IMG/VR virus record: IMGVR_UViG_3300010396_000037
DNA length: 64,000 nucleotides
Reading direction: 5' to 3' (one strand)
Origin: a virus
A model generated the notes under the pieces. The model did no database searches and was not told the DNA's origin. It worked only from the letters and a program-made list of their open reading frames with translations. Position numbers and translations under genes: made by a program. Positions 20,149 to 64,000 of this stretch are shown here, piece by piece. Numbering within the stretch: the stretch's first letter is position 1; each line of letters begins with the position of its first letter.

Positions 20149-21288
20149 ATGTTAACTCTACAAACAATGAAAGAACAGTTCAAAGACGTGAAGTCTGTTA
20201 GATTCATGGAGGATACTGTGCGTGGCGTTACCATTGTCTGTTATATGGTGGATGATCCAGAGTTGTGGAAGCACCCTCTTGGTTTGGAATGCCGTGGATC
20301 AGTATTTGATACCAAGACGGGAAAGTGCCTGTGTCGTCCATTTGAGAAGTTCTTCAATTTCCATGAAATGAGGACGGATTACCAACAGGAAATAATTAAG
20401 CAGATCAATCACAATAGCAGTCAATGTGCGTTCACCAAGAAACGTGATGGCAGTATGATCACGCCTGTTATGTTACCAAATGGTGAACTGGATTTCAAGA
20501 CCAAGAAGTCTTTTGAGTCTGATGTTGCCATATTGGCTAAGGATTACATCAAGACGCTTCCTAACATCTTGGAATGGTGTAAGATTGTTTGCACATCAGG
20601 ATACACGCCAATTTTTGAATTCACGCATCCTGATAGTCAGATTGTGATTGGTTATGGAGACCAACCAACATTGACTCTGTTAGCTGTCCGTCACATCAAC
20701 TCTGGTCATTACACTCCAAATTTTTGGAATATGCCTGGTCCAATGGATGTTGATAGAAATGTGTTTGTATGTAATTTAGACCTAGAAAGAGCACAACGTC
20801 AAACAGAAGGTGAAGAAGGTTGGGTATTGGAATGGACTGATCCAGTATCTTTGAATTCTACACGCGTAAAATTTAAGACACAATGGTACATTGATCGTCA
20901 TCGTTTGCTTGATTTGCGTGAACGTGATGTTGCTGATGCAGTCATTGAAGACAAGATTGATGACTTGCGTGAAAGCATGATTGCGGCTGGTGCTGATTTG
21001 GAAACACTGTATGCAGTCCAACAGCGAGTTGTTGGTGAATTGGTATACTTGATGGATATTTCTGTGAAGCTTCTGGATGAAGCAAAGAGCAATGATGAAA
21101 GCAAGAAAGGTGTAGCTCTGTTTGCCATACAACATGGAAAAGAATTTATGCCAGTCATAATGGCTTTGCATGAAGGAAATGAATCCAAGGCTGAAAGGAA
21201 CAACAAGAAACTTTGGGAGAAGCATTTTAGGGATGGATACAAATTAAGATCTATCGTTAACAACAAATTTGGAGAACAAGATGAGTGA
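20149..21288 (+). CDS. rnlA: RNA ligase 1 (T4 Rnl1/RnlA family)
   Basis: ECRG, RPFEKFFN, motif I KRDGSMI, TPIFEF, EGWV, VKFKT.WY. Confidence 0.93.
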   Translation: MLTLQTMKEQFKDVKSVRFMEDTVRGVTIVCYMVDDPELWKHPLGLECRGSVFDTKTGKCLCRPFEKFFNFHEMRTDYQQEIIKQINHNSSQCAFTKKRDGSMITPVMLPNGELDFKTKKSFESDVAILAKDYIKTLPNILEWCKIVCTSGYTPIFEFTHPDSQIVIGYGDQPTLTLLAVRHINSGHYTPNFWNMPGPMDVDRNVFVCNLDLERAQRQTEGEEGWVLEWTDPVSLNSTRVKFKTQWYIDRHRLLDLRERDVADAVIEDKIDDLRESMIAAGADLETLYAVQQRVVGELVYLMDISVKLLDEAKSNDESKKGVALFAIQHGKEFMPVIMALHEGNESKAERNNKKLWEKHFRDGYKLRSIVNNKFGEQDE

Positions 21289-21585: not shown

Positions 21586-22569
21586 ATGGCCGTTGTAAAA
21601 TTGCCAGTGGAACATGTTTCCGCTGAATGGATGGGCAAAGAAGAAGAAACTTTGTTTGATGTGAACGAACACCACGTGATTTTCACGGTTGGCGTGAGTG
21701 CCAGTGGAAAGACGACCTGGTCTGAACAATTTGCTAAAAGTCACCCAAATTGGGTTGTCATTAGTCGTGATTATGCTCGCGCGGACCTTTTATCTCCTGG
21801 TAAGTTTAGTTGGACAGCATGGAAGAAGCGTGGTTCTCGTGGTGAGAAGGAAGTCAATTTTTTAGTTGAGTCGGCCATAGATATGGCTATCCGTCGTGGG
21901 ATAGACGTGATCATTGCTGACACCAATCTGTCTCCTAACAATTTCAATTCATTGGCTGCAAAATTTCGTGATCATGGCTATGTTGTTCATTTCAAGTTCT
22001 TTCCAATAGACTGGAAGACTGCTGTGGAACGCGACAACGCGCGTCTGAATGGCGTGGGTGTGTCCGTGATCTCTGCACAGTTCGAGAAACTGCATAAGTT
22101 GGAGCGTCAAAAATCAAAATTGCATTCACGTGGTGGATATCAAGCCATTCTGTGTGATATTGATGGAACGTTAGCGCATATGGTATCACGCGGTCCTTAT
22201 GATTACAGCGATGAAGCGATCGCTACGGATGCCATTGATGAAGATGTTCGTGAAATTCTAGCGAGCATGGCCCACCGTGGTTTCAAGATCATTATCGTTA
22301 GTGGGCGTGATGGAGTATGTAGGGAAGCTACTCATAAGTGGCTGACCAAGTATTTGACTGAACAAATTGGAATTCAATTCAGTCATTACCAACGCGCGGA
22401 AGGCGACAAGCGTCCTGATGACCAGATCAAAGAAGAACTGCTTCATAAGATCATTGAAGATGGTTTTGACCCGATAATGGTGTTTGATGACCGTCCGAGA
22501 GTCTGCCGTATGTGGCGTCGTCTGGGATTGAAAGTGTTTCAGGTCGGCAATCCATACATCGAGTTCTAA
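21586..22569 (+). CDS. pseT: Polynucleotide 5'-kinase/3'-phosphatase (PseT/Pnkp)
   Basis: GVSASGKTT P-loop, SRD, DTNL; HAD motifs DIDGTLA, SGRD, FDDRPRV. Confidence 0.95.
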   Translation: MAVVKLPVEHVSAEWMGKEEETLFDVNEHHVIFTVGVSASGKTTWSEQFAKSHPNWVVISRDYARADLLSPGKFSWTAWKKRGSRGEKEVNFLVESAIDMAIRRGIDVIIADTNLSPNNFNSLAAKFRDHGYVVHFKFFPIDWKTAVERDNARLNGVGVSVISAQFEKLHKLERQKSKLHSRGGYQAILCDIDGTLAHMVSRGPYDYSDEAIATDAIDEDVREILASMAHRGFKIIIVSGRDGVCREATHKWLTKYLTEQIGIQFSHYQRAEGDKRPDDQIKEELLHKIIEDGFDPIMVFDDRPRVCRMWRRLGLKVFQVGNPYIEF

Positions 22570-24219: not shown

Positions 24220-24510
24220 ATGAATAGTGTCAATGACTTGGCTTGGGAAGCTGCTGCCAATGTCTGGAAGAAAGCTGATGCAGCTCTAGCCGCAGCCAAG
24301 AAGGCTGAAGATGATGCTCGACAAACTCTAATCGCCATGGCACCCGCTGGACATAAGGGAGCTGGAATTGAATTGGTTCGAGTTATCTCTGAAGGGAGTG
24401 TTTCCTACAAAGCTGTTCTTGATGAGTTGTTGCCTGACTTGGATGTTAGCAAGTGGCGTGGTGAGCCATCAACTTCTTACCGTATACTCAAGGATAAGAA
24501 AGACCAATGA
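24220..24510 (+). CDS. Hypothetical protein (resembles the C-terminus of YqaJ-type proteins)
   Basis: GSVSYK...DLDVSKWRG; AGGAG RBS. Confidence 0.55.
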   Translation: MNSVNDLAWEAAANVWKKADAALAAAKKAEDDARQTLIAMAPAGHKGAGIELVRVISEGSVSYKAVLDELLPDLDVSKWRGEPSTSYRILKDKKDQ

Positions 24511-25271
24511 AATTTCGCCTCTGGTCTGACGTGCATTGTGATTTCGGTCCTCCTGAAGTTATTCACACTCTCAAGGATGACAAAGAAACAGTGCTGATAA
24601 TTGCTGGTGACTGGGCCACGCGTGGACAGCCTCACACGGAAATTCTAGAAGAACTATGCAAGCGTTTTAAATTCGTCTTGTTCGTAGCTGGCAATCATGA
24701 CTACTGGGGTTCAACCATTGATGAAGTGGATGAATTTTGGAAGAAATTCCAAAACAAGCATAAGAATTTTCGTTACTTGAATCCTGGAATCATATATATT
24801 GATGATGTAGCAGTCATTGGTGCAACTCTCTGGACAGACTGCGAGCATGGTGATCTGGGCAAACTCGAATTGATGCGGCAGTACATGTCGCCTGATTTTT
24901 CCTTCATCCATGACTTTAAGCAAAGACCTTACACGTGGATTGCCAAAAACGCTGATCACAAGTACTTCATCCGGGAACAATTGTACCAAAACTACAATGA
25001 TGACAAAGTTCTGGTTGTAACGCATCATGCACCACACGCACATTGCGACCCGGCTCATCCATTCAATCCTGGGTTCTGTTGTTCAAATATGGATGATCTG
25101 ATTGATCCTAGATTTGTGCATACATGGGTTTTTGGTCATACACACGTGCCAGTTGATTTTGAACTGAATGGCGTTAGAATGATTTCTAATCCACGTGGCT
25201 ACAAGGGATGTGAGTTACTGGCTAAAGTTTGGGATGAAAATGCATTAGATGCTATGATTTTCGAGATTTGA
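24507..25271 (+). CDS. Calcineurin-like metallophosphoesterase
   Basis: SDVH, AGD, GNHD, THHAP, GHTH, NPRGY. Confidence 0.92.
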   Translation: MKFRLWSDVHCDFGPPEVIHTLKDDKETVLIIAGDWATRGQPHTEILEELCKRFKFVLFVAGNHDYWGSTIDEVDEFWKKFQNKHKNFRYLNPGIIYIDDVAVIGATLWTDCEHGDLGKLELMRQYMSPDFSFIHDFKQRPYTWIAKNADHKYFIREQLYQNYNDDKVLVVTHHAPHAHCDPAHPFNPGFCCSNMDDLIDPRFVHTWVFGHTHVPVDFELNGVRMISNPRGYKGCELLAKVWDENALDAMIFEI

Positions 25272-25283
25272 TGGAGTAGTGAT

Positions 25284-25682
25284 ATGTGCTTAACTATCAA
25301 TACATTTACCCATGAAAAGACTCTTGTTGTTGATCATCGCTATCGTGTTGTTACTAAATGTTTTCCTAAAGTAATAGAAGAAGACATGACCGTCTTTAAG
25401 TGTGTGCATACAGATGGCAAAGCGGAATATCAGAAGTTCTGGTATGATCCTAACACACTCTACAAGAAAAGAAAGTTACGACCAACCAAGGAAGCCGTGT
25501 ATGGCGCAGGTTTTCACGCCTACACGTCATCGCCAGTGAGGGTTTACAAGAACCGCATGGTGATAATGGCAACTATTCCAAAAGGCTCTACTGTTTTCTT
25601 TGGAGTTGATGGGGATGTTGTAACCAATGCACTTAAAACTTTAGAATTTCCAAAGAGATATAAGGGTCATGACAGAACGTAA
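25284..25682 (+). CDS. Hypothetical protein (MCL...GFHAY...IPKG family)
   Basis: ORF with RBS, coupled to the next gene. Confidence 0.6.
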   Translation: MCLTINTFTHEKTLVVDHRYRVVTKCFPKVIEEDMTVFKCVHTDGKAEYQKFWYDPNTLYKKRKLRPTKEAVYGAGFHAYTSSPVRVYKNRMVIMATIPKGSTVFFGVDGDVVTNALKTLEFPKRYKGHDRT

Positions 25683-26706
25683 ACTTGTAACCATTCGTAC
25701 AATCAGCGAATTGAAACCCATACCCAAGGCCGACACTATAGAGTGCGCCAAGGTTGATGGCTGGAAAGTGGTTGTAAAGAAAGGTGAATTTCAAGTTGGA
25801 GACAAATGTGTCTTCATTGAAATCGACAGCGTTGTGCCTGATACGTCACCTTTCAAGTTCTTGATTGATAAACAAGGTAAGACTTTCTATAATGGTAAGT
25901 TTGGCGCTCGTGTTAAGACCATTCGTTTGCGCGGACAATTGTCACAGGGTCTGGCGCTGCCAATCAATTCATTTCATTTGGTTGATTTGGGTGGTGATAT
26001 AACTGCTAACCTGGATATCTGGAAATATGATCCGCCACCACCTGCTGAATTGGCAGGTAAGGTTGCAGGCAATTGGCCATCTTGGTTGCAGAAAACAGAC
26101 CAAGAAAGGATTCAAAACATTGACCCATCTGAATTGACTGGAACTTATGCAGTTGAGGAGAAAATGGATGGTACATCTATGTCAGTGTGGATTGATGAAC
26201 ACGGAGTTCTAGGTGTTGGTACCAAGAGCATGTCTCTGAAAATAGATGACGCAGTAAATGACGGCAATACGTATGTCCGCATGGCGCATGATAGCGGCAT
26301 GTTGAAGTGGCTATCAACTCATGTTTTGCCTCAGGATGCTCCATTTGCTATTCAGGGTGAATTGTGTGGACCAGGGGTTCAAGGTAATCCTTACAAATTA
26401 GACCGAGCAGCTTTCTTTGCTTTCGACATTTTTGCACCACGCAAGGGAGGCAAATTGCCAGAAGGTGAACGTGATAATATTATTGAAGCAATGCAACTGG
26501 ATGGAGTCAGAATCGACACGGTGCCATTCATTTGTTACTGCGATCTGGACGAAATTACAGGAAACAAGATAGAGTTTCTATTGGCAGAAGCTGATGATAA
26601 AAGTCTTGTTTCTGATGTTTCGCGTGAAGGAATAGTGTTGAAGGACGTGGCTGACGGGAATAAATCTTTCAAATGTATTAGCAACAAATACCTTGAAAAT
26701 CAATAA
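25669..26706 (+). CDS. RNA ligase, DRB0094 (Rnl5) family
   Basis: N-terminal OB domain RKLVTIR..PIPKADTIE, LRGQLSQGL, KTDQERIQN, EKMDGTS, QGELCGPGVQGN, EGIV, FKCISNKYL. Confidence 0.92.
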   Translation: MTERKLVTIRTISELKPIPKADTIECAKVDGWKVVVKKGEFQVGDKCVFIEIDSVVPDTSPFKFLIDKQGKTFYNGKFGARVKTIRLRGQLSQGLALPINSFHLVDLGGDITANLDIWKYDPPPPAELAGKVAGNWPSWLQKTDQERIQNIDPSELTGTYAVEEKMDGTSMSVWIDEHGVLGVGTKSMSLKIDDAVNDGNTYVRMAHDSGMLKWLSTHVLPQDAPFAIQGELCGPGVQGNPYKLDRAAFFAFDIFAPRKGGKLPEGERDNIIEAMQLDGVRIDTVPFICYCDLDEITGNKIEFLLAEADDKSLVSDVSREGIVLKDVADGNKSFKCISNKYLENQ

Positions 26707-26801: not shown

Positions 26802-27776
26802 ATGAATGTCACTGTTGAAAGTCTGCAAAAGGAAATCCCGGAAAAGAAACTCGTGGGTAATGTAGCCTATGTTCTACAGGCACCATGGGATCAGCCGGAT
26901 TTTGCCAAAGAAACATCTTTGGAGAAAAGGATCAAGTCAGCTGGCCTGGATTGGAGAGCGGAGTCCTCAACCCTGCACTACTTTAATAGTAAAGGAACTG
27001 CATTGGTCCCGGGACGTATGGCATTGTTCCGGTCCGACAATGGAAAGTTTCTTGGAGCAGTTGGAGAGAATTACAAAGTCGTGCAACCCAAAGAAGTCAT
27101 TGAGTTTTATGAGAACTTGATTGCCAACTTTGGGTTTGAAATGGAAGCGGCTGGTTCTTTCTCTGAAGGCAAAAGGATTTGGGCTCTGGCCAATACCAAG
27201 AACGTCATGACATTGGATGGGGATGAAAGCAAGATGTATCTTTTGCTCGCTACCTCCTTCGACGGAAGCATGGCAACTCATGTTCGACTGACTAGCATTC
27301 GAGTCGCGAGTGAAAGCAGTCTGAATGTTGCGGTGGATGAAAAGATCCTCGCCAGAGATGTGATCAAAGTCATGCACAGCCAATCCTTTGATGCTGAAAA
27401 GGTCAAGCACCAACTCGCTATCGAGAAGCGGTGGGCCAAATTTCAGAAAACAGCGAAGAAGATGGTTGAGCATAAGATATCAGAAGACAAAGCGATAGAG
27501 TATCTGTCGAATGTCTATGATATCCATGAAGGTGTCAAGGGCGTGAGGCGGACTCGGTTCCTAAATGCAATGGAATTCAGTCTGAATGAAGCTCCTGGCG
27601 CCAACCTCGCAACCGCAAAAGGAACTCTATGGGGAGCAGTCAATGCGGTTAGCTTCGACATAGATCACAGGAAGCGTAGGAATGAAAACACGCGCGCGGA
27701 ACTCGCCATGATTGGGTATGGTAACGCGACCAAGGAAAAGGCATGGAAGTTGGCTGAACGGCTCCTGGCGGCATAG
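26802..27776 (+). CDS. DUF932 / TIGR03299-type phage-plasmid protein, diverged paralogue
   Basis: AGLDW, RSDNG.FLG.VG..YKVVQP, METAG-like MEAAG, YLLLATSFDGS, GTLWG; promoter motif at 26723-26736. Confidence 0.85.
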   Translation: MNVTVESLQKEIPEKKLVGNVAYVLQAPWDQPDFAKETSLEKRIKSAGLDWRAESSTLHYFNSKGTALVPGRMALFRSDNGKFLGAVGENYKVVQPKEVIEFYENLIANFGFEMEAAGSFSEGKRIWALANTKNVMTLDGDESKMYLLLATSFDGSMATHVRLTSIRVASESSLNVAVDEKILARDVIKVMHSQSFDAEKVKHQLAIEKRWAKFQKTAKKMVEHKISEDKAIEYLSNVYDIHEGVKGVRRTRFLNAMEFSLNEAPGANLATAKGTLWGAVNAVSFDIDHRKRRNENTRAELAMIGYGNATKEKAWKLAERLLAA

Positions 27777-29654: not shown

Positions 29655-30617
29655 ATGAGTGCTGAAATCGACATGAGTAATGGTAAGGCCAATGTTGCTT
29701 ACATCAATGAGACTCCTTGGCATGGTCTGGGTCAGTCTCTGACTCCGGGTGCTGCTCTGGAAATCTGGGCTGAACAGGCTGGTCAGAACTGGGAAGCCAA
29801 GCGTGCGGCTCTGCGTTACACGGCTGGCAAGGACACGGTCAGTATCCCGAACCGCAAGGCTCTGTATCGTTCTGACACGCATGCTTTCCTGGGTATGGTG
29901 GCCGATGGCTACAAGATCGTGCAGCCGAAGGAAGTCCTGGAGTTCTACCGTGACCTGATCAGTGACTTCGGTTTCGAGATGGAGACGGCTGGTTGCTTGT
30001 TCGGTGGCAAGCGCGTCTGGGCTTTGGCCAACTGCAAGAAGGCTGTTGCTCTAAAGGGTAATGATGACGTCAACTTGTATCTGCTGCTTGCCACGTCCTT
30101 TGATGGCTCCATGAGCACGCAGGCTCGTCTGACCGGTGTTCGCGTGGTCTGCAACAACACGCTTGAACTGGCGACTGCTTCTAATGGTGTGGGTAACAAT
30201 GTGGTACGCGTGTATCACACGGCCAGCTTCAATTCGGATGCGGTCAAGAAACAGCTGGACATCGACAATCGCTGGCAGAACTTCTGCGACACGGCAAGCA
30301 AAATGCAAAATCGTGAAGTCAGCAAGGCTGAAGTGATTGACTTCCTGACCAAGTTGTACAAGATCAATCCCAACAGTTCTGAACTGATCAAGAACCGTTT
30401 CTTGGCCCGTATGGAGCACTCGCTGTTCAATGCTCCGGGTGCCCAGAAGACTGGCTCGGCTGGTACCCTCTGGGGTGTCTTGAATGCGGTGACCTATGAT
30501 GTTGATCACAAGGCCACGCGCGTCGCTGACTACCGGATGGCCAATGGCATGATGGGTGCGGGTAGCTTGCTGAAGCAGCAGGCTTGGAAGGAAGCTGAAA
30601 TGGCTCTGGCTGCATGA
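29655..30617 (+). CDS. DUF932 / TIGR03299-type phage-plasmid protein
   Basis: PWHGLG, LYRSDT, YKIVQP.EVLEFY, METAG, YLLLATSFDGS, RVVCNNTL, GTLWGVLNAVT. Confidence 0.92.
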   Translation: MSAEIDMSNGKANVAYINETPWHGLGQSLTPGAALEIWAEQAGQNWEAKRAALRYTAGKDTVSIPNRKALYRSDTHAFLGMVADGYKIVQPKEVLEFYRDLISDFGFEMETAGCLFGGKRVWALANCKKAVALKGNDDVNLYLLLATSFDGSMSTQARLTGVRVVCNNTLELATASNGVGNNVVRVYHTASFNSDAVKKQLDIDNRWQNFCDTASKMQNREVSKAEVIDFLTKLYKINPNSSELIKNRFLARMEHSLFNAPGAQKTGSAGTLWGVLNAVTYDVDHKATRVADYRMANGMMGAGSLLKQQAWKEAEMALAA

Positions 30618-35283: not shown

Positions 35284-35402
35284 ATTTGCGTTGTTGGTTG
35301 AAAAGTAGGTGGCGCGAAATTCGTACAGAGAAGGTCCAGCAGCCAATTGGGATAAGCTCTGGCAACGCAAATTATTGTAGAATGGTAGTAAAGGTGTTGT
35401 TT

Positions 35403-35770
35403 GGCGGCAGGTTGGACGCGGGTTCGATTCCCGCCCACTCCACCAAAAGCAAATTAGTCACGAAAGGGGAAGGTAAGATCACCGTATCGTAAGAGAAATC
35501 CTAGACCCGGTGACGCTAGTTTGTTTTTGATGGGGTGGACATGGCTTCGACAGTCTGGACTGAGGACAAGGCTCTACCCAAGCGTTGAATGTAGGCTTGT
35601 AAATCTGAACACTCAAACGTCAAATGCAAACGATAATGCATACGATCTAGCCCTAGCGGCCTGATCCCAAGAGTGGCTCCGTCTTGGTTCCTCAACGGAG
35701 CATTGAATTAAAGAACCCACAGGGTGATGCATTAAATCCTGCGGATGAGAGGAAAGACTGACGCCTCTGA
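35403..35770 (+). ncRNA. ssrA: Circularly permuted (two-piece) tmRNA; tag ANDNAYDLALAA
   Basis: Acceptor piece GACGCGGGTTCGATTCCCGCCCACTCCACCA ends at 35445. After the intervening segment, the coding piece starts GGGGTGGACATGGCTTCGAC at 35532. G3-U70 pair; tag ORF 35626-35664. Outer ends are approximate. Confidence 0.92.
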
Positions 35771-55851: not shown

Positions 55852-56466
55852 TCATTGAATATGTTCCAACTGTTGTGTCGAGAATGACAAAGGATAAGCG
55901 CAGGCGAATCCGATGTAATCATGATTGTCAGACAGGGAGGCTATACAAGTGATGGTTGTGATGATTTCTCCTTGTTGATTGAAAATAGCTGAACCAGAGT
56001 CCCCATAGAAACTTGGTAGTTGAAACATCATCATTACTGCGCGTGATCCTACATGTGATAGTCCTGAATACACACCAGTCCTATACAACTGATCCAAACG
56101 CCCAGGAGCGCCAGCGATAAACACTTCCTGACCCAATTGTAAAGGTTGTTGACTAATACTAGCCCAGTTCTTAAAAGTGTATCCCAAAATAACGATCACA
56201 TGATCTTTGGTATCATATGTTTTATGCTTAACGGGTACAACTTTGTCTTTGGAATCCACAGCAAGTGAAGAAGTGTTCTTGTCAACACAATGAGATGCGG
56301 TTAATATAGTATGAGGTCCAACTGCAACAGAATTACAATCACTGCCGTCAGCAAACCAGATTTGATGTGTCACAGATATCAATGAAACAGGGAAGTCTGC
56401 TCTCTGTTGAATTGAACAGCATGAACATAACAAAAGTAGCAGTATAGCTATCAACAACTTCTTCAT
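55852..56466 (-). CDS. Trypsin-like serine protease, probable lipoprotein
   Basis: ILTASHC (His), D-H (Asp), GDSGS (Ser); signal with LCSC; minus-strand late promoter at 56492-56499. Confidence 0.88.
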   Translation of the reverse strand: MKKLLIAILLLLLCSCCSIQQRADFPVSLISVTHQIWFADGSDCNSVAVGPHTILTASHCVDKNTSSLAVDSKDKVVPVKHKTYDTKDHVIVILGYTFKNWASISQQPLQLGQEVFIAGAPGRLDQLYRTGVYSGLSHVGSRAVMMMFQLPSFYGDSGSAIFNQQGEIITTITCIASLSDNHDYIGFACAYPLSFSTQQLEHIQ

Positions 56467-56544
56467 GGTTGTTCCCTATTCAAGCCAAAATTATTTAGTT
56501 TAGTAAAAAAATTGTCAATACATGCAGCATTTTTTGAATTCACC

Positions 56545-56613
56545 TATAAATAGAATACTCGCGAGCTGTCATTTATCATCCGTTAATAAATTTTCATCAA
56601 ACACGGGTATAAT
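56545..56613 (+). promoter_or_regulatory. Tandem late (TATAAATA 56545) and palindrome-TATAAT (56573-56613) promoters heading the RNA array
   Basis: Exact or near-exact matches to both promoter families. Confidence 0.75.
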
Positions 56614-56714
56614 AGTCCTCGTGTTAAGGGTTAAAGCGAAATGCTGAACCCAGCTGTAAAATTCAAGCTACTTTGAAAACTGATCAAATTTCACTTGTCC
56701 ACTCGCAAGAGTGG

Positions 56715-56843
56715 ACATTAGAAAGGGTTCGCCGATATTAGAGCTGATAACTGAACACGACTAGCAAATCGATTCAGGAATAAGCTGCTCGGCTAGGAGG
56801 AATCTGGAAACAGAAATACCAGCGGATGAATCCTTTCTAATGT
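56715..56843 (+). ncRNA. Unassigned structured RNA (~130 nt)
   Basis: ACATTAGAAAGGGTTCG / TGAATCCTTTCTAATGT terminal helix with internal hairpins. Confidence 0.55.
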
Positions 56844-56847
56844 ATAT

Positions 56848-56933
56848 GGGTGTCAGGGAGAGGTCTCCCACGCAGTCTGTAAAACTGCTGCCTCACAAGG
56901 GCAATCTAGGATCGTTACCTAGGGCACCCACCA
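56848..56933 (+). tRNA. tRNA-Tyr(GTA)
   Basis: GCAGT-ct GTA aa-ACTGC, variable arm, CCA; T-loop ATCGTTA. Confidence 0.85.
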
Positions 56934-57025
56934 ATTTATGGCCTGAAAGCTTGTAAGTCCATGCCGAATTACAACATGGCGTTGAAAACGTAAGCGGGAG
57001 AATGGCCCGCCAAGGCAACCAAATG

Positions 57026-57123
57026 CAGTAAATGTAACAGTGCTGGATGAACGGCTAAGTCGCCCCATTAAAGGGGAGATCCTAGGTTCGAGTCCTAGGG
57101 AATAACACTGATAACATTTGCTG
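57026..57123 (+). ncRNA. tRNA-like element inside an extended stem, no CCA
   Basis: D-arm, CCCC-attaaa-GGGG arm and CTAGG-TTCGAGT-CCTAG T-arm, closed by CAGTAAATGT..CAGTG / CACTG..ACATTTGCTG. Confidence 0.55.
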
Positions 57124-57125
57124 AA

Positions 57126-57437
57126 GTCAGAGGATAATGGATGGCCGTCCGGCATCCTCTGGCGGATCTATCTGGATCACAAGAGGGTAGCGGCACAGAT
57201 AAACCGTCCTGGCGTGATCCTGTTCTTTGCTCATTGTAAGATGTAAATGAGCTATATCGGTGAGGTTTGCTGCAATCTCACACGTGACCTAAACTGGCAG
57301 CATTTAAGTAAAGTTGATGTATCTGGACCTCGAGACGGAACATAGCAAAATCTGTGTTCAAATAGAATGACCGGATAGCGCCGGATCACGGGGTAGAACG
57401 TTACCAGATGGGAGCTGAGCATCTCATAAAACTGCTC
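57126..57437 (+). ncRNA. Unassigned multi-pseudoknot structured RNA (~310 nt)
   Basis: Several helices and loop-distal complementarities (see findings). Confidence 0.65.
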
Positions 57438-57445
57438 TTGAATTT

Positions 57446-57518
57446 GGGGCGTGAGCAGATGGCGAGCAACCGCACTGTCTATGCGGTGAAAGGGTTTCGA
57501 ATACCCTACGTCCCGCCA
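57446..57518 (+). tRNA. tRNA-Asp(GTC)
   Basis: CCGCA-ct GTC ta-TGCGG; GCCA end. Confidence 0.85.
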
Positions 57519-57652
57519 AATTGAGGTGGCACTTGTCTCTTCAGACAGAGCTCCTGAATGTGAGACAATGAGTTGGGATCAGAGAATCCGCGAACTCAAC
57601 ACAATTTATGTGCGCACCCGCCAGCTTTTAGAGTGGTCTAGGTAGCGGCAAT

Positions 57653-57727
57653 GAACCACGACGCAGCTGGTGTGGCGGAGAGGCTTTCACCCTCTTGAGA
57701 TGGGATCGAAACCCATGTGGTTCTCCA
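57653..57727 (+). tRNA. tRNA-Glu(TTC)
   Basis: AGAGG-ct TTC ac-CCTCT; GAACCAC/GTGGTTC; CCA. Confidence 0.85.
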
Positions 57728-57816
57728 ATTTTTGTAAAAGTTGTAGTATACTTGAAAGAATTCAGTGGGCGCATCCTCGGCTCCTACAAATTGTTGCACA
57801 CAGAGAATCAATTTAA

Positions 57817-57894
57817 CGGAGTGTAGCTCAGTCTGGCTAGAGCATCTGCTTTGGGAGCAGAGGGTCGCAGGTTCGAATCCTGTTTCTCCGACCA
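57817..57894 (+). tRNA. tRNA-Pro(TGG)
   Basis: Canonical cloverleaf, CCA. Confidence 0.95.
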
Positions 57895-57898
57895 ATAT

Positions 57899-57975
57899 CA
57901 GGGTATAGTTCAGTCTAGTAGAATACTCGGCCTGGAACCGAGAGGTCGTTGGAGCGAAGCCAACTGCCCTGACCA
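57899..57975 (+). tRNA. tRNA-Pro(TGG), variant (C33, A37, T-loop AGCGAAG)
   Basis: CTCGG-cc TGG aa-CCGAG; CCA. Confidence 0.8.
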
Positions 57976-58061
57976 ATAAAAAAGATACAAGATAGCCGTC
58001 AACTGGGCAACTCCTTTCCCAGTTGCCTTTGAACCGGAACTTGTATTGATGGAGAAGAACT

Positions 58062-58135
58062 GGGCTGCAAGCATTAAAGTGATGCAGCGGGCCTTTAACC
58101 CGCAGAACAGAGAGCGTTACTCTGGCGGCCCACCA
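58062..58135 (+). tRNA. tRNA-Lys(TTT), variant (C33, T-loop AGCGTTA)
   Basis: GCGGG-cc TTT aa-CCCGC; CCA. Confidence 0.8.
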
Positions 58136-58159
58136 AATATGCAGCAGAGGAGAATTGCC

Positions 58160-58396
58160 ATGAACACTTATAAGAGTCCAGCGACATATTTTTCTCCATA
58201 TTCTGTTGTTTCTGGTGTGAACGCTGATATTGCTCGTCATAGAGACGCGATTAAGGATATGGAAGAAAGGCGCGAAGAGGAAATTCGGAATTCTGGATAC
58301 AGTACAGATATTGCCCGTCATTATGAATTCTTTATAAGATTGGCAAAGGATAGTCTTGCAATTGTGACTGATAAAGGTCTTGGCAGAAAGAAGTAA
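58160..58396 (+). CDS. Small hypothetical protein inside the tRNA array
   Basis: GAGGAG RBS; internal repeat DIARH. Confidence 0.6.
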   Translation: MNTYKSPATYFSPYSVVSGVNADIARHRDAIKDMEERREEEIRNSGYSTDIARHYEFFIRLAKDSLAIVTDKGLGRKK

Positions 58397-58582
58397 TTTA
58401 GAGTCAGAACTGAATTTGGTGATGGGCGTTTCCCACAAGAACCTTTCAGCAGGGGGAAACTTAAATGGCCTGTAGCCTGCCAACTCGTTTTTTTTAGTCT
58501 CGAGAAACGGGTAGTCCGTTAGCTGCTAGCCATAGCTGGCAGTTTTCTGATGGTGCAACTCCATCAATCTTTACAACGCTGT

Positions 58583-58657
58583 GGGGATTGTAGTTCAATG
58601 GTAGAATCTCCGGCTGTGAACCGGAAGACTCAAGATCGATACTTGACTTTCCCCCCA
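58583..58657 (+). tRNA. tRNA-His(GTG)
   Basis: TCCGG-ct GTG aa-CCGGA; G-1:C73; CCA. Confidence 0.85.
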
Positions 58658-61731: not shown

Positions 61732-61943
61732 TGGTGAGCTTTGTAGGCTAAATATGCTGATGAACGCGGAGACTTAGCGGCTTGATTCTACTCGGGTGTG
61801 GCAGCATTGTAGTGCACTATGATGCAACGATTGATCATCGTGACTGTTCGTGGGTTTGACTCCCACCATCGGCTTCTACAAAGATAGCAGTTACATGGAG
61901 TGACTGAGGGAATAACACGAGGCGCAATTGCGCGCCTACACCA
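61732..61943 (+). ncRNA. Scaffolded tRNA-like RNA, copy A (giant variable arm, CTA in the anticodon loop)
   Basis: TGGTGAG...TAACACGAGGCG-CGCCTACACCA scaffold enclosing a cloverleaf at 61756-61873. Confidence 0.7.
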
Positions 61944-61959
61944 AAAGGAAAATAAATTT

Positions 61960-62149: not shown

Positions 62150-62326
62150 GTGAGTTCTTGAGGTAACAGAATTGACTGTGGGGGTGTAGCTCAACGTTAG
62201 AGCACTGAATGCAAGGAGTGTGGCGCGCGCGATCTCCTTTGGTTCAAGGATGGTGGTTTAACTCCGCCCATCCCCTGCTCAAGAAAACTTAACACGAGGC
62301 GTCAACACACGCCTACACCTAGAAAG
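62143..62326 (+). ncRNA. Scaffolded tRNA-like RNA, copy B (giant anticodon arm)
   Basis: TAGGTGAG...TAACACGAGGCG-CGCCTACACCTA scaffold enclosing a cloverleaf at 62180-62275. Confidence 0.7.
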
Positions 62327-63411: not shown

Positions 63412-64000
63412 ATGGAATGTAAATATTGCAACAAGTCGTTTATCAATAAACAAAAACTAGCAAGTCATGAGAGCAACTCTGCTTGCAATCCTAACAAAAC
63501 GATTTACTGTGCCCACTGCAAGTTTTGCGGTAGAAATTGCTCTCATCTAAATGGCTTACGTTCTCACGAAATCACTTGTATAAACAATCCAAACAGAGTT
63601 AAGGGTAAGAGAGGCGATGGTTGGTACAAAGTAGATAAAACTGCATTTTCTAAAAAATTGAGCGAACGTTACAGAAGTCATGAAACGAACAAATTGATAA
63701 GCGCGACATGTTTAGCAAAAGCGAAATCTGGTAATTGGCATCATGGCGCCGGCAAAAGTAAAAAATACACATACAAAGGATACAAATTCGACTCTACTTG
63801 GGAAGTACAACTTGCTATTTACTGGGATTCGAAAGAAATAAATTGGATTAGAAATTCCGAAACATTTCCTTACTTCTGGAACAAAAAGAACAGATCTTAC
63901 ACTCCCGATTTTCTTTTACCAAACTCAAATACGTACATAGAAGTCAAAGGATACAAAACAGAAAGAGACATTGCAAAATGGTCTTCTTTCCCTGGTAGAC
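63412..64000 (+). mobile_element. Zinc-finger PD-(D/E)XK endonuclease (putative homing endonuclease; 3' truncated, not in the ORF track)
   Basis: Manual translation: MECKYC...SHE...C and CKFCG...SHE..C fingers, then FDSTWE...YTPDF...YIEVKGY; late promoter ACTAAATA at 63399-63406. Confidence 0.85.

Follow-up and report, generated by a model that had tools for sequence, protein, structure and literature searches.

The RNA island and its surroundings

The window, by which we mean the whole stretch of 64,000 nucleotides analysed here, belongs to IMG/VR record IMGVR_UViG_3300010396_000037, a 67-kb sequence (ca. 38% complete) from a T4-like soil phage, and it carries the T4-type markers major head protein, scaffold, gp32 and ribonucleotide reductase. 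From around 56.5 kb to the end of the window, tRNAs and other RNAs are arrayed on the + strand. The element under study occupies positions 57126-57437 of this strand in the T4-like phage contig, between the genes for tRNA-Tyr and tRNA-Asp, and comprises, with its immediate flanks, the following features:

56848-56936, + strand: tRNA-Tyr(GTA) with encoded CCA, the first tRNA of the island (ARAGORN)
57026-57123, + strand: tRNA-elbow mimic with a long closing stem, recognized from the sequence and lying outside the element
57126-57163, + strand: P1 hairpin, with a 10-bp stem (57126-35/57154-63) and a small capped inner stem (alignment)
57174-57220, + strand: P2, an irregular hairpin, with outer helix 57174-80/57214-20
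57184-57214, + strand: 31-nt block AGGGTAGCGGCACAGATAAACCGTCCTGGCG inside P2 (identity across lineages)
57229-57252, + strand: P3 hairpin of 7 bp (57229-35/57246-52) with a variable loop of 9-10 nt (covariation)
57260-57281, + strand: P4 hairpin of 8 bp, 57260-67/57274-81 (covariation)
57282-57288, + strand: ACGTGAC, invariant single-stranded joiner from P4 to the 3' strand of the pseudoknot
57297-57302, + strand: GCAGCA, 3' strand of an H-type pseudoknot, pairing with the P4 loop TGCTGC (57268-73)
57316-57402, + strand: three-way junction, a lineage-specific 3' domain (RNAalifold on the window and L111, its closest relative)
57404-57409, + strand: CCAGAT, 3' strand of a proposed long-range helix, of uncertain partner
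57408-57437, + strand: small hairpin (57408-13/57422-27) in the leader of tRNA-Asp, kept in relatives L093/L094
57446-57521, + strand: tRNA-Asp(GTC) with encoded CCA (ARAGORN)

The T-loop of tRNA-Tyr is odd (ATCGTTA), and the D-stem of tRNA-Asp is poorly paired. A tRNA-Glu with encoded CCA was also predicted by ARAGORN at 57653-57727; between 56300 and 58600, the Rfam tRNA model reported none of these three genes, even at E ≤ 10. No noteworthy promoter-like or terminator-like site was found within the element. Upstream of the island there is a T4-late-like TATAAATA (56546-53) and a TATAAT (56608-13), and the leader 5' of tRNA-Tyr (56523-56800), which is 74-81% conserved throughout the related lineages, even in the one without the core of the element, contains a hairpin, GTCCACTC/GAGTGGAC, at 56698-56717.

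Other parts of the island also contain structured elements. A AACACGAGGCG...CGCCTACAC hairpin motif terminates scaffolded tRNA-mimic elements at 61895-61950 and 62285-62320, as well as in L111 (positions 975-1015), and the AACAC-plus-hairpin arrangement that closes the scaffolded elements at 61.9 and 62.3 kb is comparable to that of the upstream mimic with P1. The element upstream of the one studied here ends differently, with AATAACAC, a 17-nt spacer and then P1. Also within the island, an ORF that is still open at the 3' end of the window (63412-63999) combines a C2H2-like zinc finger at its N-terminus with a region weakly like phage endonuclease I, and may encode a homing endonuclease. Elsewhere, the window holds an RNA-repair and rescue kit (20149-21288, 21586-22569, 24507-25271, 25669-26706 and 35384-35664) made up of an Rnl1-type ligase, a polynucleotide kinase-phosphatase (PNKP), a metallophosphoesterase, another RNA ligase that carries an OB-fold domain, and a permuted tmRNA. 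A pair of DUF932 paralogues (26802-27776 and 29655-30617) is separated by 2 kb, and the G+C content is 0.515 at 30-34 kb versus ca. 0.42 elsewhere.

A strand-specific non-coding RNA outside the described families

The segment 57126-57437 is a conserved, folded and strand-specific non-coding RNA in a tRNA cluster. It contains no ORF of at least 60 amino acids, and the two shorter ORFs within it are disrupted by indels in L111; these frame-breaking differences leave no conserved reading frame in the element. The + strand folds better than its shuffled versions (z −2.57, with 1 of 100 shuffles as good), whereas the − strand shows no excess over shuffles (z −1.12), and the element is on the same strand as all the tRNAs. 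The G.U pairs in P3, P4 and the pseudoknot (see below) likewise establish the + strand as that of the RNA.

We compared the sequence with 4227 Rfam families using cmscan, for the whole window at gathering thresholds and for 56300-58600 at E ≤ 10, and neither search placed a family on the element. An earlier note on this DNA, which had made the novelty of the RNA dependent on this check, is borne out in its view of a dense, structured non-coding RNA among phage tRNA genes that cannot be assigned to a known family. The homologues in L086 and L102 matched no family at E ≤ 10; at this same threshold, the models of GOLLD and ROOL, the large phage RNAs to whose class the earlier note had likened the element, matched neither the window nor these two homologues. 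No self-cleaving ribozyme class and no group I or group II intron matched either strand in Rfam at E ≤ 10, and nothing specific points to the ribozyme that had been contemplated. Moreover, the element does not interrupt a tRNA, because the downstream tRNA-Asp is complete. None of the Rfam riboswitch or curated antitermination RNA models matched.

The sole sub-threshold match to the YrlA model (RF02553; 19.4 bits, E 0.8) lies outside the element, at 57863-57924, where it overlies tRNA-Pro and adjacent tRNA genes, and no Ro/TROVE protein was found among the 36 ORFs of the window that were scanned against Pfam. Using blastn, we retrieved only chance matches from 50,697 GenBank records of cultured phages ('distant' mode; T4 is assumed to be among them) and from E. 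coli genomes. A search of the literature found no description of this RNA. The core of the element (57174-57302, ca. 130 nt) belongs to no described RNA family.

Homologues are found in eight lineages of soil phages

Homologues of the trypsin-like protease encoded next to the island (55852-56466, divergently transcribed), retrieved from a collection of 5.8 billion proteins, led to contigs from other soil samples. The L111 contig was reached through a small downstream ORF, and an exact 20-mer from the most conserved block identified another three loci in JGI metagenomes; of its five matches there, two (L104 and L105) were dismissed as chance. In total there are eight lineages, with the window and L085 representing the same phage, and the resulting family has to be read with the caveat that these are eight lineages only, three pairs of which are close. 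L111 is 89% identical to the window over 518 nt and has the same architecture. The remaining homologues comprise a short type (L102, L103 and L106) and a long type (L086-88, L091 and L096). The tRNA-Tyr gene is homologous in L086, L091, L096, L102 and L111, and tRNA-Asp lies 3' of the element in all six lineages where it could be located, L091 and L096 being those where it was not located.

Further searches of IMG/VR were empty. This applies to DNA and pattern searches with a P1 38-mer, a tRNA-Asp 28-mer, a P2 19-mer and a P2 pattern with degenerate stems, and to the neighbouring protease, which retrieved nothing from that database. The major head protein did lead to 80 relatives, with at most 66% identity in this protein; a DNA search of five of them gave only chance 15-mers, one inside a coding region, and the covariance model R1 (see below) found nothing in 28 IMG/VR head-protein relatives, including one complete genome of 167 kb. 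Four matches to the degenerate P2 pattern among 185,579 prokaryote genomes (one per species) were all rejected as chance. As the R1 and pattern searches were empty, the family is narrow in the available collections. In all, the RNA family to which the core belongs is undescribed and, in the collections searched, restricted to eight related soil-phage lineages.

Compensatory changes support three hairpins and a pseudoknot in the core

We built the covariance model R1 from the five sequences with P2, P3 and P4, and aligned all eight lineages to it. The pseudoknot was added only for counting pairs, after the R1 alignment; it was absent from R1, and the alignment is therefore not biased towards it. 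The nested helices were counted on the model-fitted alignment, a caveat for their numbers, although the changes are already visible in the raw MAFFT alignment. Standard pairs occupy 97.2% of the cells, compared to 34-46% in controls with the 3' partners shifted by 1-3 columns, and 18 pairs are changed on both sides, compared to 1-3 in these controls. Among 500 shuffles, none reached the observed value in four of five measures, and three reached it in the fifth. R1 scores 137.7 bits on the window and 143-177 bits on L111, L102, L103 and L106; in the long type it matches P2 only, with ca. 60 bits.

The outer helix of P2 reads GGATCAC/GTGATCC in the window, AGAGGTC/GACCTCT in L086/L091/L096 and TGCCAC/GTGGCA in L103/L106, with six of seven pairs changed on both sides. 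Inside it there is a 3x3 internal loop (AAG/GGC), a short helix (AGG 57184-86/CCT 57208-10) and a bulge (GTA), and the top consists of GCGG (57190-93) paired with CCGT (57204-07) and a 10-nt loop, CACAGATAAA (57194-57203; CACAGAUAAA as RNA); the inner seven pairs show no variation. When the 312 nt are folded by minimum free energy, 57378-84 takes up the 3' strand of P2 instead, a pairing that was rejected, since covariation fixes P2. In P3 (GCTCATT/AATGAGC in the window, GGGCGTT/AATGCTC in L102 and GGGTGTT/AACATTC in L103), four of the seven pairs are changed on both sides and every cell pairs. The strands of P4 are GTGAGGTT/AATCTCAC in the window, CTGAAGAT/ATCTTCTG in L111, GCAAAGTT/AACTTTGC in L102 and ACAAAGTT/AACTTTGT in L103, and double changes affect five of its eight pairs.

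The pseudoknot takes its 5' strand from the P4 loop (57268-73), which pairs with a strand 15-16 nt downstream, after the joiner ACGTGAC (ACGUGAC), which is identical in all five lineages with P3-P4. For this pairing, the window has TGCTGC/GCAGCA, L111 has GGTTGC/GCAATC, and L102/L103/L106 have GACTGC/GCAGTC; three of its six pairs are doubly changed, and pairing is kept in 29 of 30 cells. All six nucleotides of the loop would be paired in the window, a sterically tight arrangement in which the outermost pair of the knot may not form; there is one spare loop nucleotide in L102 and four in L111.

The sequence words quoted in the earlier note are all present, about where it had placed them, and collecting homologues for covariation, as it had proposed, gave the eight lineages and the 18 doubly changed pairs. 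Its helices GGATCAC/GTGATCC, GCTCATT/AATGAGC and GTGAGGTT/AATCTCAC show compensatory changes in the homologues. From its three potential pseudoknots, only one, TGCTGC/GCAGCA, stands, with the double changes just described. The proposal that GCACAGAT (57193-57200), in the P2 loop, pairs with ATCTGTGT (57350-57357) fails: the complement is lost in L111, where the P2 loop is unchanged, and this knot is refuted because 57350-57357 coincides in part with the 3' strand (57352-59) of P6, a local hairpin that covaries.

A 31-nt block inside P2 is invariant

The block AGGGTAGCGGCACAGATAAACCGTCCTGGCG is identical in seven lineages (window, L111, L086-88, L091, L096, L103 and L106), and L102 lacks only one G of it (30/31). 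For comparison, the neighbouring tRNA-Tyr and tRNA-Asp are only ca. 75-79% identical between the window and the long type, and the neighbouring protease 59-64%. The block is present in a single copy in the window. Because the enclosing helix is rewritten between lineages and its interior is invariant, the constraint appears to act on an RNA hairpin whose interior is read sequence-specifically, and the block is likely a recognition surface, as judged from its pattern of conservation. A search of the window for targets complementary to the P2 loop found nothing beyond chance. By-eye comparison of P2 with k-turns, sarcin-ricin, T-box, RNase P J11/12 and 23S H69-71 motifs gave no fit.

The 3' domain and recurring sequence words

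The helices of the three-way junction are a closing stem (57316-32/57389-57402), P6 (57338-45/57352-59) and P7 (57368-74/57381-88). Between the window and L111, four pairs of P6 and one of P7 are changed on both sides, and the closing stem shows one consistent single change. The junction is found only in the window lineage and this nearest relative; it is absent from L102/L103/L106, and the long type has another structured RNA in its place.

The long-range helix that had been proposed between ATCTGG (57170-75) and CCAGAT (57404-09) does not hold, as it shares G57174-75 with P2 and its 5' strand is ATCCGG in L111, with a C.A mismatch. A second ATCTGG (57321-26), within GTATCTGG (57319-26), is retained by L111 and by the long type, and in the latter TCTGG...CCAGA forms a local hairpin; this second copy may belong either to the closing stem of the junction (57316-32/57389-57402) or to such a local TCTGG...CCAGA hairpin. 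As candidates for a tertiary contact, CAGATA in the P2 loop and the complementary TATCTG (57320-25) show no change in any lineage that has them, and TATCTG is missing from the short type. The words ATCTGG, CCAGAT and CAGATA recur in each element (57170-75, 57194-99, 57321-26 and 57404-09 in the window), including the long type in L086, and one of these places is the invariant P2 loop. The repeats permit mutually exclusive pairings and might act as a conformational switch.

The small hairpin in the tRNA-Asp leader, whose GGGA/TCTC stem had also been noted earlier, is retained in L093/L094, where it reads AATGA/TCATT and has both sides changed in three pairs (by eye). The possible pairing of its loop GAGCA (57417-21) with TGCTC (57433-37) is identical in the window and L111 and is reduced to GAG/CTC, 3 bp, in L093.

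The 312 nt are made up of modules that are gained and lost separately

P1 is followed by an invariant linker, GGATCT (57164-69). In its stem, one pair changes on both sides (A-U to C-G) and two others show single changes that still pair (U.G to C-G and G-C to G.U). P1 and the upstream tRNA mimic co-occur in the window, L111, L093/L094, L102, L103 and L106, and neither is present in L086, L091 or L096. In our reading of this co-occurrence, P1 is part of a unit with the upstream mimic (57026-57123) and not with P2.

The contigs L093/L094 match positions 56523-57170 of the window at 81% and match again from 57417; they therefore carry the mimic, P1, the last small hairpin and tRNA-Asp, and lack 57171-57416. 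Model R1 found no match in them. As they keep the island and both flanks, the core is dispensable, at least there.

The long type lacks 56939-57170 (the mimics and P1), and its P2 begins 9 nt past the CCA of tRNA-Tyr and is followed by ca. 360 nt of a different structured RNA with its own covarying hairpins, which matched no Rfam family. In L086 (4997-5360, − strand; also in L091 and L096), this RNA includes a multi-branch domain closed by the stem GGTAATG/CATTACC, and examples of the covarying hairpins are GTTGGA/TCCAAC versus GCTAG/CTAGC and GGCGG/CCGCC versus GTGGG/CCCAC. Also in L086 (4625-4695, − strand), ARAGORN reports a 'tRNA-???' with a two-base anticodon, where the Rfam tRNA model scores 52.7 bits. 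In the short type, P1, P2, P3 and the P4 pseudoknot are followed by tRNA-Asp within 8-37 nt, and the 3' domain is absent. The span from P2 to tRNA-Asp accordingly ranges from ca. 100 to 360 nt, with sequences that differ by type.

Given the separate gain and loss among relatives, the 312 nt consist of at least four units. Contrary to the single RNA of ca. 310 nt that had been envisaged, presence and absence in these relatives thus resolves it into four modules, and the conserved core of only ca. 130 nt, together with the lack of a model match, also speaks against placing it in the GOLLD/ROOL class.

Proposed function and alternatives

On our best reading, the core represents a new small RNA family that is probably cut out with the tRNAs and would act in trans through its invariant hairpin. 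As a whole, the explanation that we favour, and hold with moderate confidence, is that the element is a four-module part of a + strand transcript from which the core is released by tRNA processing to act in trans. The element would be transcribed from the + strand within a long phage transcript of tRNAs and non-coding RNAs, as four separately inherited modules: P1, the core, the three-way junction and the hairpin of the tRNA-Asp leader. The core would be released as the flanking tRNAs mature, with RNase P cutting at 57446, the 5' end of tRNA-Asp, a step that we assume from general tRNA processing. The released core would then be a stable RNA working in trans, in which a conserved protein or RNA partner would make contact with the invariant P2 hairpin, and the pseudoknot or the added 3' domains would provide a scaffold and protection from exonucleases. 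The RNA that follows P2 differs between the long, short and window types, which would be expected if P2 were a recognition handle attached to a variable scaffold. Finally, the core might serve as a decoy or cofactor in a programme of the phage for tRNA protection. In favour of the explanation as a whole we also count the PNKP, two RNA ligases and tmRNA encoded by the same phage. The more specific proposal, that the enzymes maturing the tRNAs free the core and that P2 then binds a conserved protein or RNA in trans, is put forward tentatively, since we consider it possible and somewhat more doubtful than not.

The invariance of P2 could equally derive from a cis role on the nascent transcript, with P2 binding RNA polymerase or a processing factor for antitermination in the manner of put or EAR, or for processing of the precursor. 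Each locus has a single copy, in every case towards the 5' end of the island and after tRNA-Tyr, ca. 0.6 kb from the promoter-like TATAAATA and TATAAT, and the transcript would exceed 7 kb and be mostly untranslated; an invariant hairpin would also suit contact with a conserved host machine, and P2 is constant where the downstream RNA is variable. However, the island is kept without P2 in L093/L094, tRNA arrays are in general highly structured and poor Rho substrates, no similarity to curated Rfam antitermination RNAs was found, and P3 and the P4 pseudoknot are also conserved, which a simple polymerase-binding hairpin would not need; we thus consider a cis element unlikely. Rather unlikely, too, is that P2 and the pseudoknot form a new functional class of RNA, be it a factor-independent element that reprograms RNA polymerase, or a small ribozyme or RNA decoy against host defences that target RNA. 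If the former were true, the host polymerase could be made to transcribe the whole untranslated RNA island.

A single large and ornate RNA or ribozyme of ca. 310 nt, of the GOLLD/ROOL kind and with several pseudoknots, would agree with the density of helices, with the one real pseudoknot and with a location near phage tRNA genes like that of GOLLD and ROOL (PMC12286853), and the strictly invariant 31-nt segment could be its catalytic core. This is improbable, because no GOLLD, ROOL or ribozyme model matched at E ≤ 10, both pairings that would link the parts fail, and the parts occur separately: L093 has P1 and no core, L086/L091/L096 have the core and no P1, and L102/L103/L106 have the core and no 3' domain. 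We find it more improbable still that the internal loops and bulge of P2 are an aptamer that binds a small molecule and alters the folding or processing of the tRNA-Asp precursor. Invariant unpaired nucleotides framed by covarying helices, and a pseudoknot module after P2, would suit such a sensor, but there is no downstream coding gene, terminator or ribosome-binding site for it to control, no Rfam riboswitch matched, and the sequence from P2 to tRNA-Asp varies from ca. 100 to 360 nt depending on the type. As to decayed tRNA genes or spacer with fortuitous helices, suggested by the many odd tRNAs and tRNA mimics of the island, the compensatory changes in five helices and one pseudoknot, and a 31-nt block that is better conserved than the adjacent functional tRNAs, make this explanation barely credible.

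Significance and comparison with known RNAs

Non-tRNA RNAs are increasingly found in phage tRNA clusters, and almost none of them has a known role. By itself, the family described here, a new orphan confined to a narrow clade, adds only modestly to their number. It offers, nevertheless, a structure backed by covariation and a candidate recognition site of 31 nt that stays constant while the adjacent tRNAs drift, and the existence of natural versions with and without each module, in a phage with a full tRNA-repair kit, makes it a tractable entry point to the role that such RNAs play for a phage of this kind.

The YrlA-type Y RNA (RF02553; PMC4201824) is modular, lies near tRNA-like modules and has a conserved protein-binding helix. 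The element resembles it as a modular phage or bacterial non-coding RNA near tRNA-like modules, and differs in that its core has no tRNA-like domain and the element itself shows no match to the model. The put RNA of HK022 and the EAR element are cis-acting RNAs for processive antitermination; a likeness in mode of action alone may be drawn, in that both are compact RNAs near the 5' end of a long transcript, under the strong sequence constraint that contact with RNA polymerase would impose, whereas the element carries a pseudoknot module together with appendages that vary, and its core is missing from one lineage.

Among the RNAs compared, GOLLD and ROOL are the nearest kind, although the element is not a member. 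Both are phage RNAs of unknown function that often lie near tRNA islands, and in GOLLD the 3' part is conserved and the 5' part variable, with many members exceeding 800 nt (PMC12286853). Likewise, the element is phage-encoded, non-coding and pseudoknotted, lies in or beside a tRNA array and, as in GOLLD, combines a conserved with a variable part; in contrast, its core is of ca. 130 nt, its parts are gained and lost independently and it is found in a narrow phage clade. ROOL measures ca. 600 nt.

Species 1 and species 2 of T4 (rnaC and rnaD) are small stable RNAs of unknown function encoded among the T4 tRNA genes; they are matured from tRNA precursors and are tRNA-shaped or simple. There is no indication of sequence homology to them, given that no significant blastn match was obtained in the 50,697 phage records (T4 being assumed present). 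The element shares with them its location in the tRNA cluster of a T4-type phage and would share their biogenesis; it differs from them in its hairpin-hairpin-pseudoknot fold and its invariant 31-nt block.
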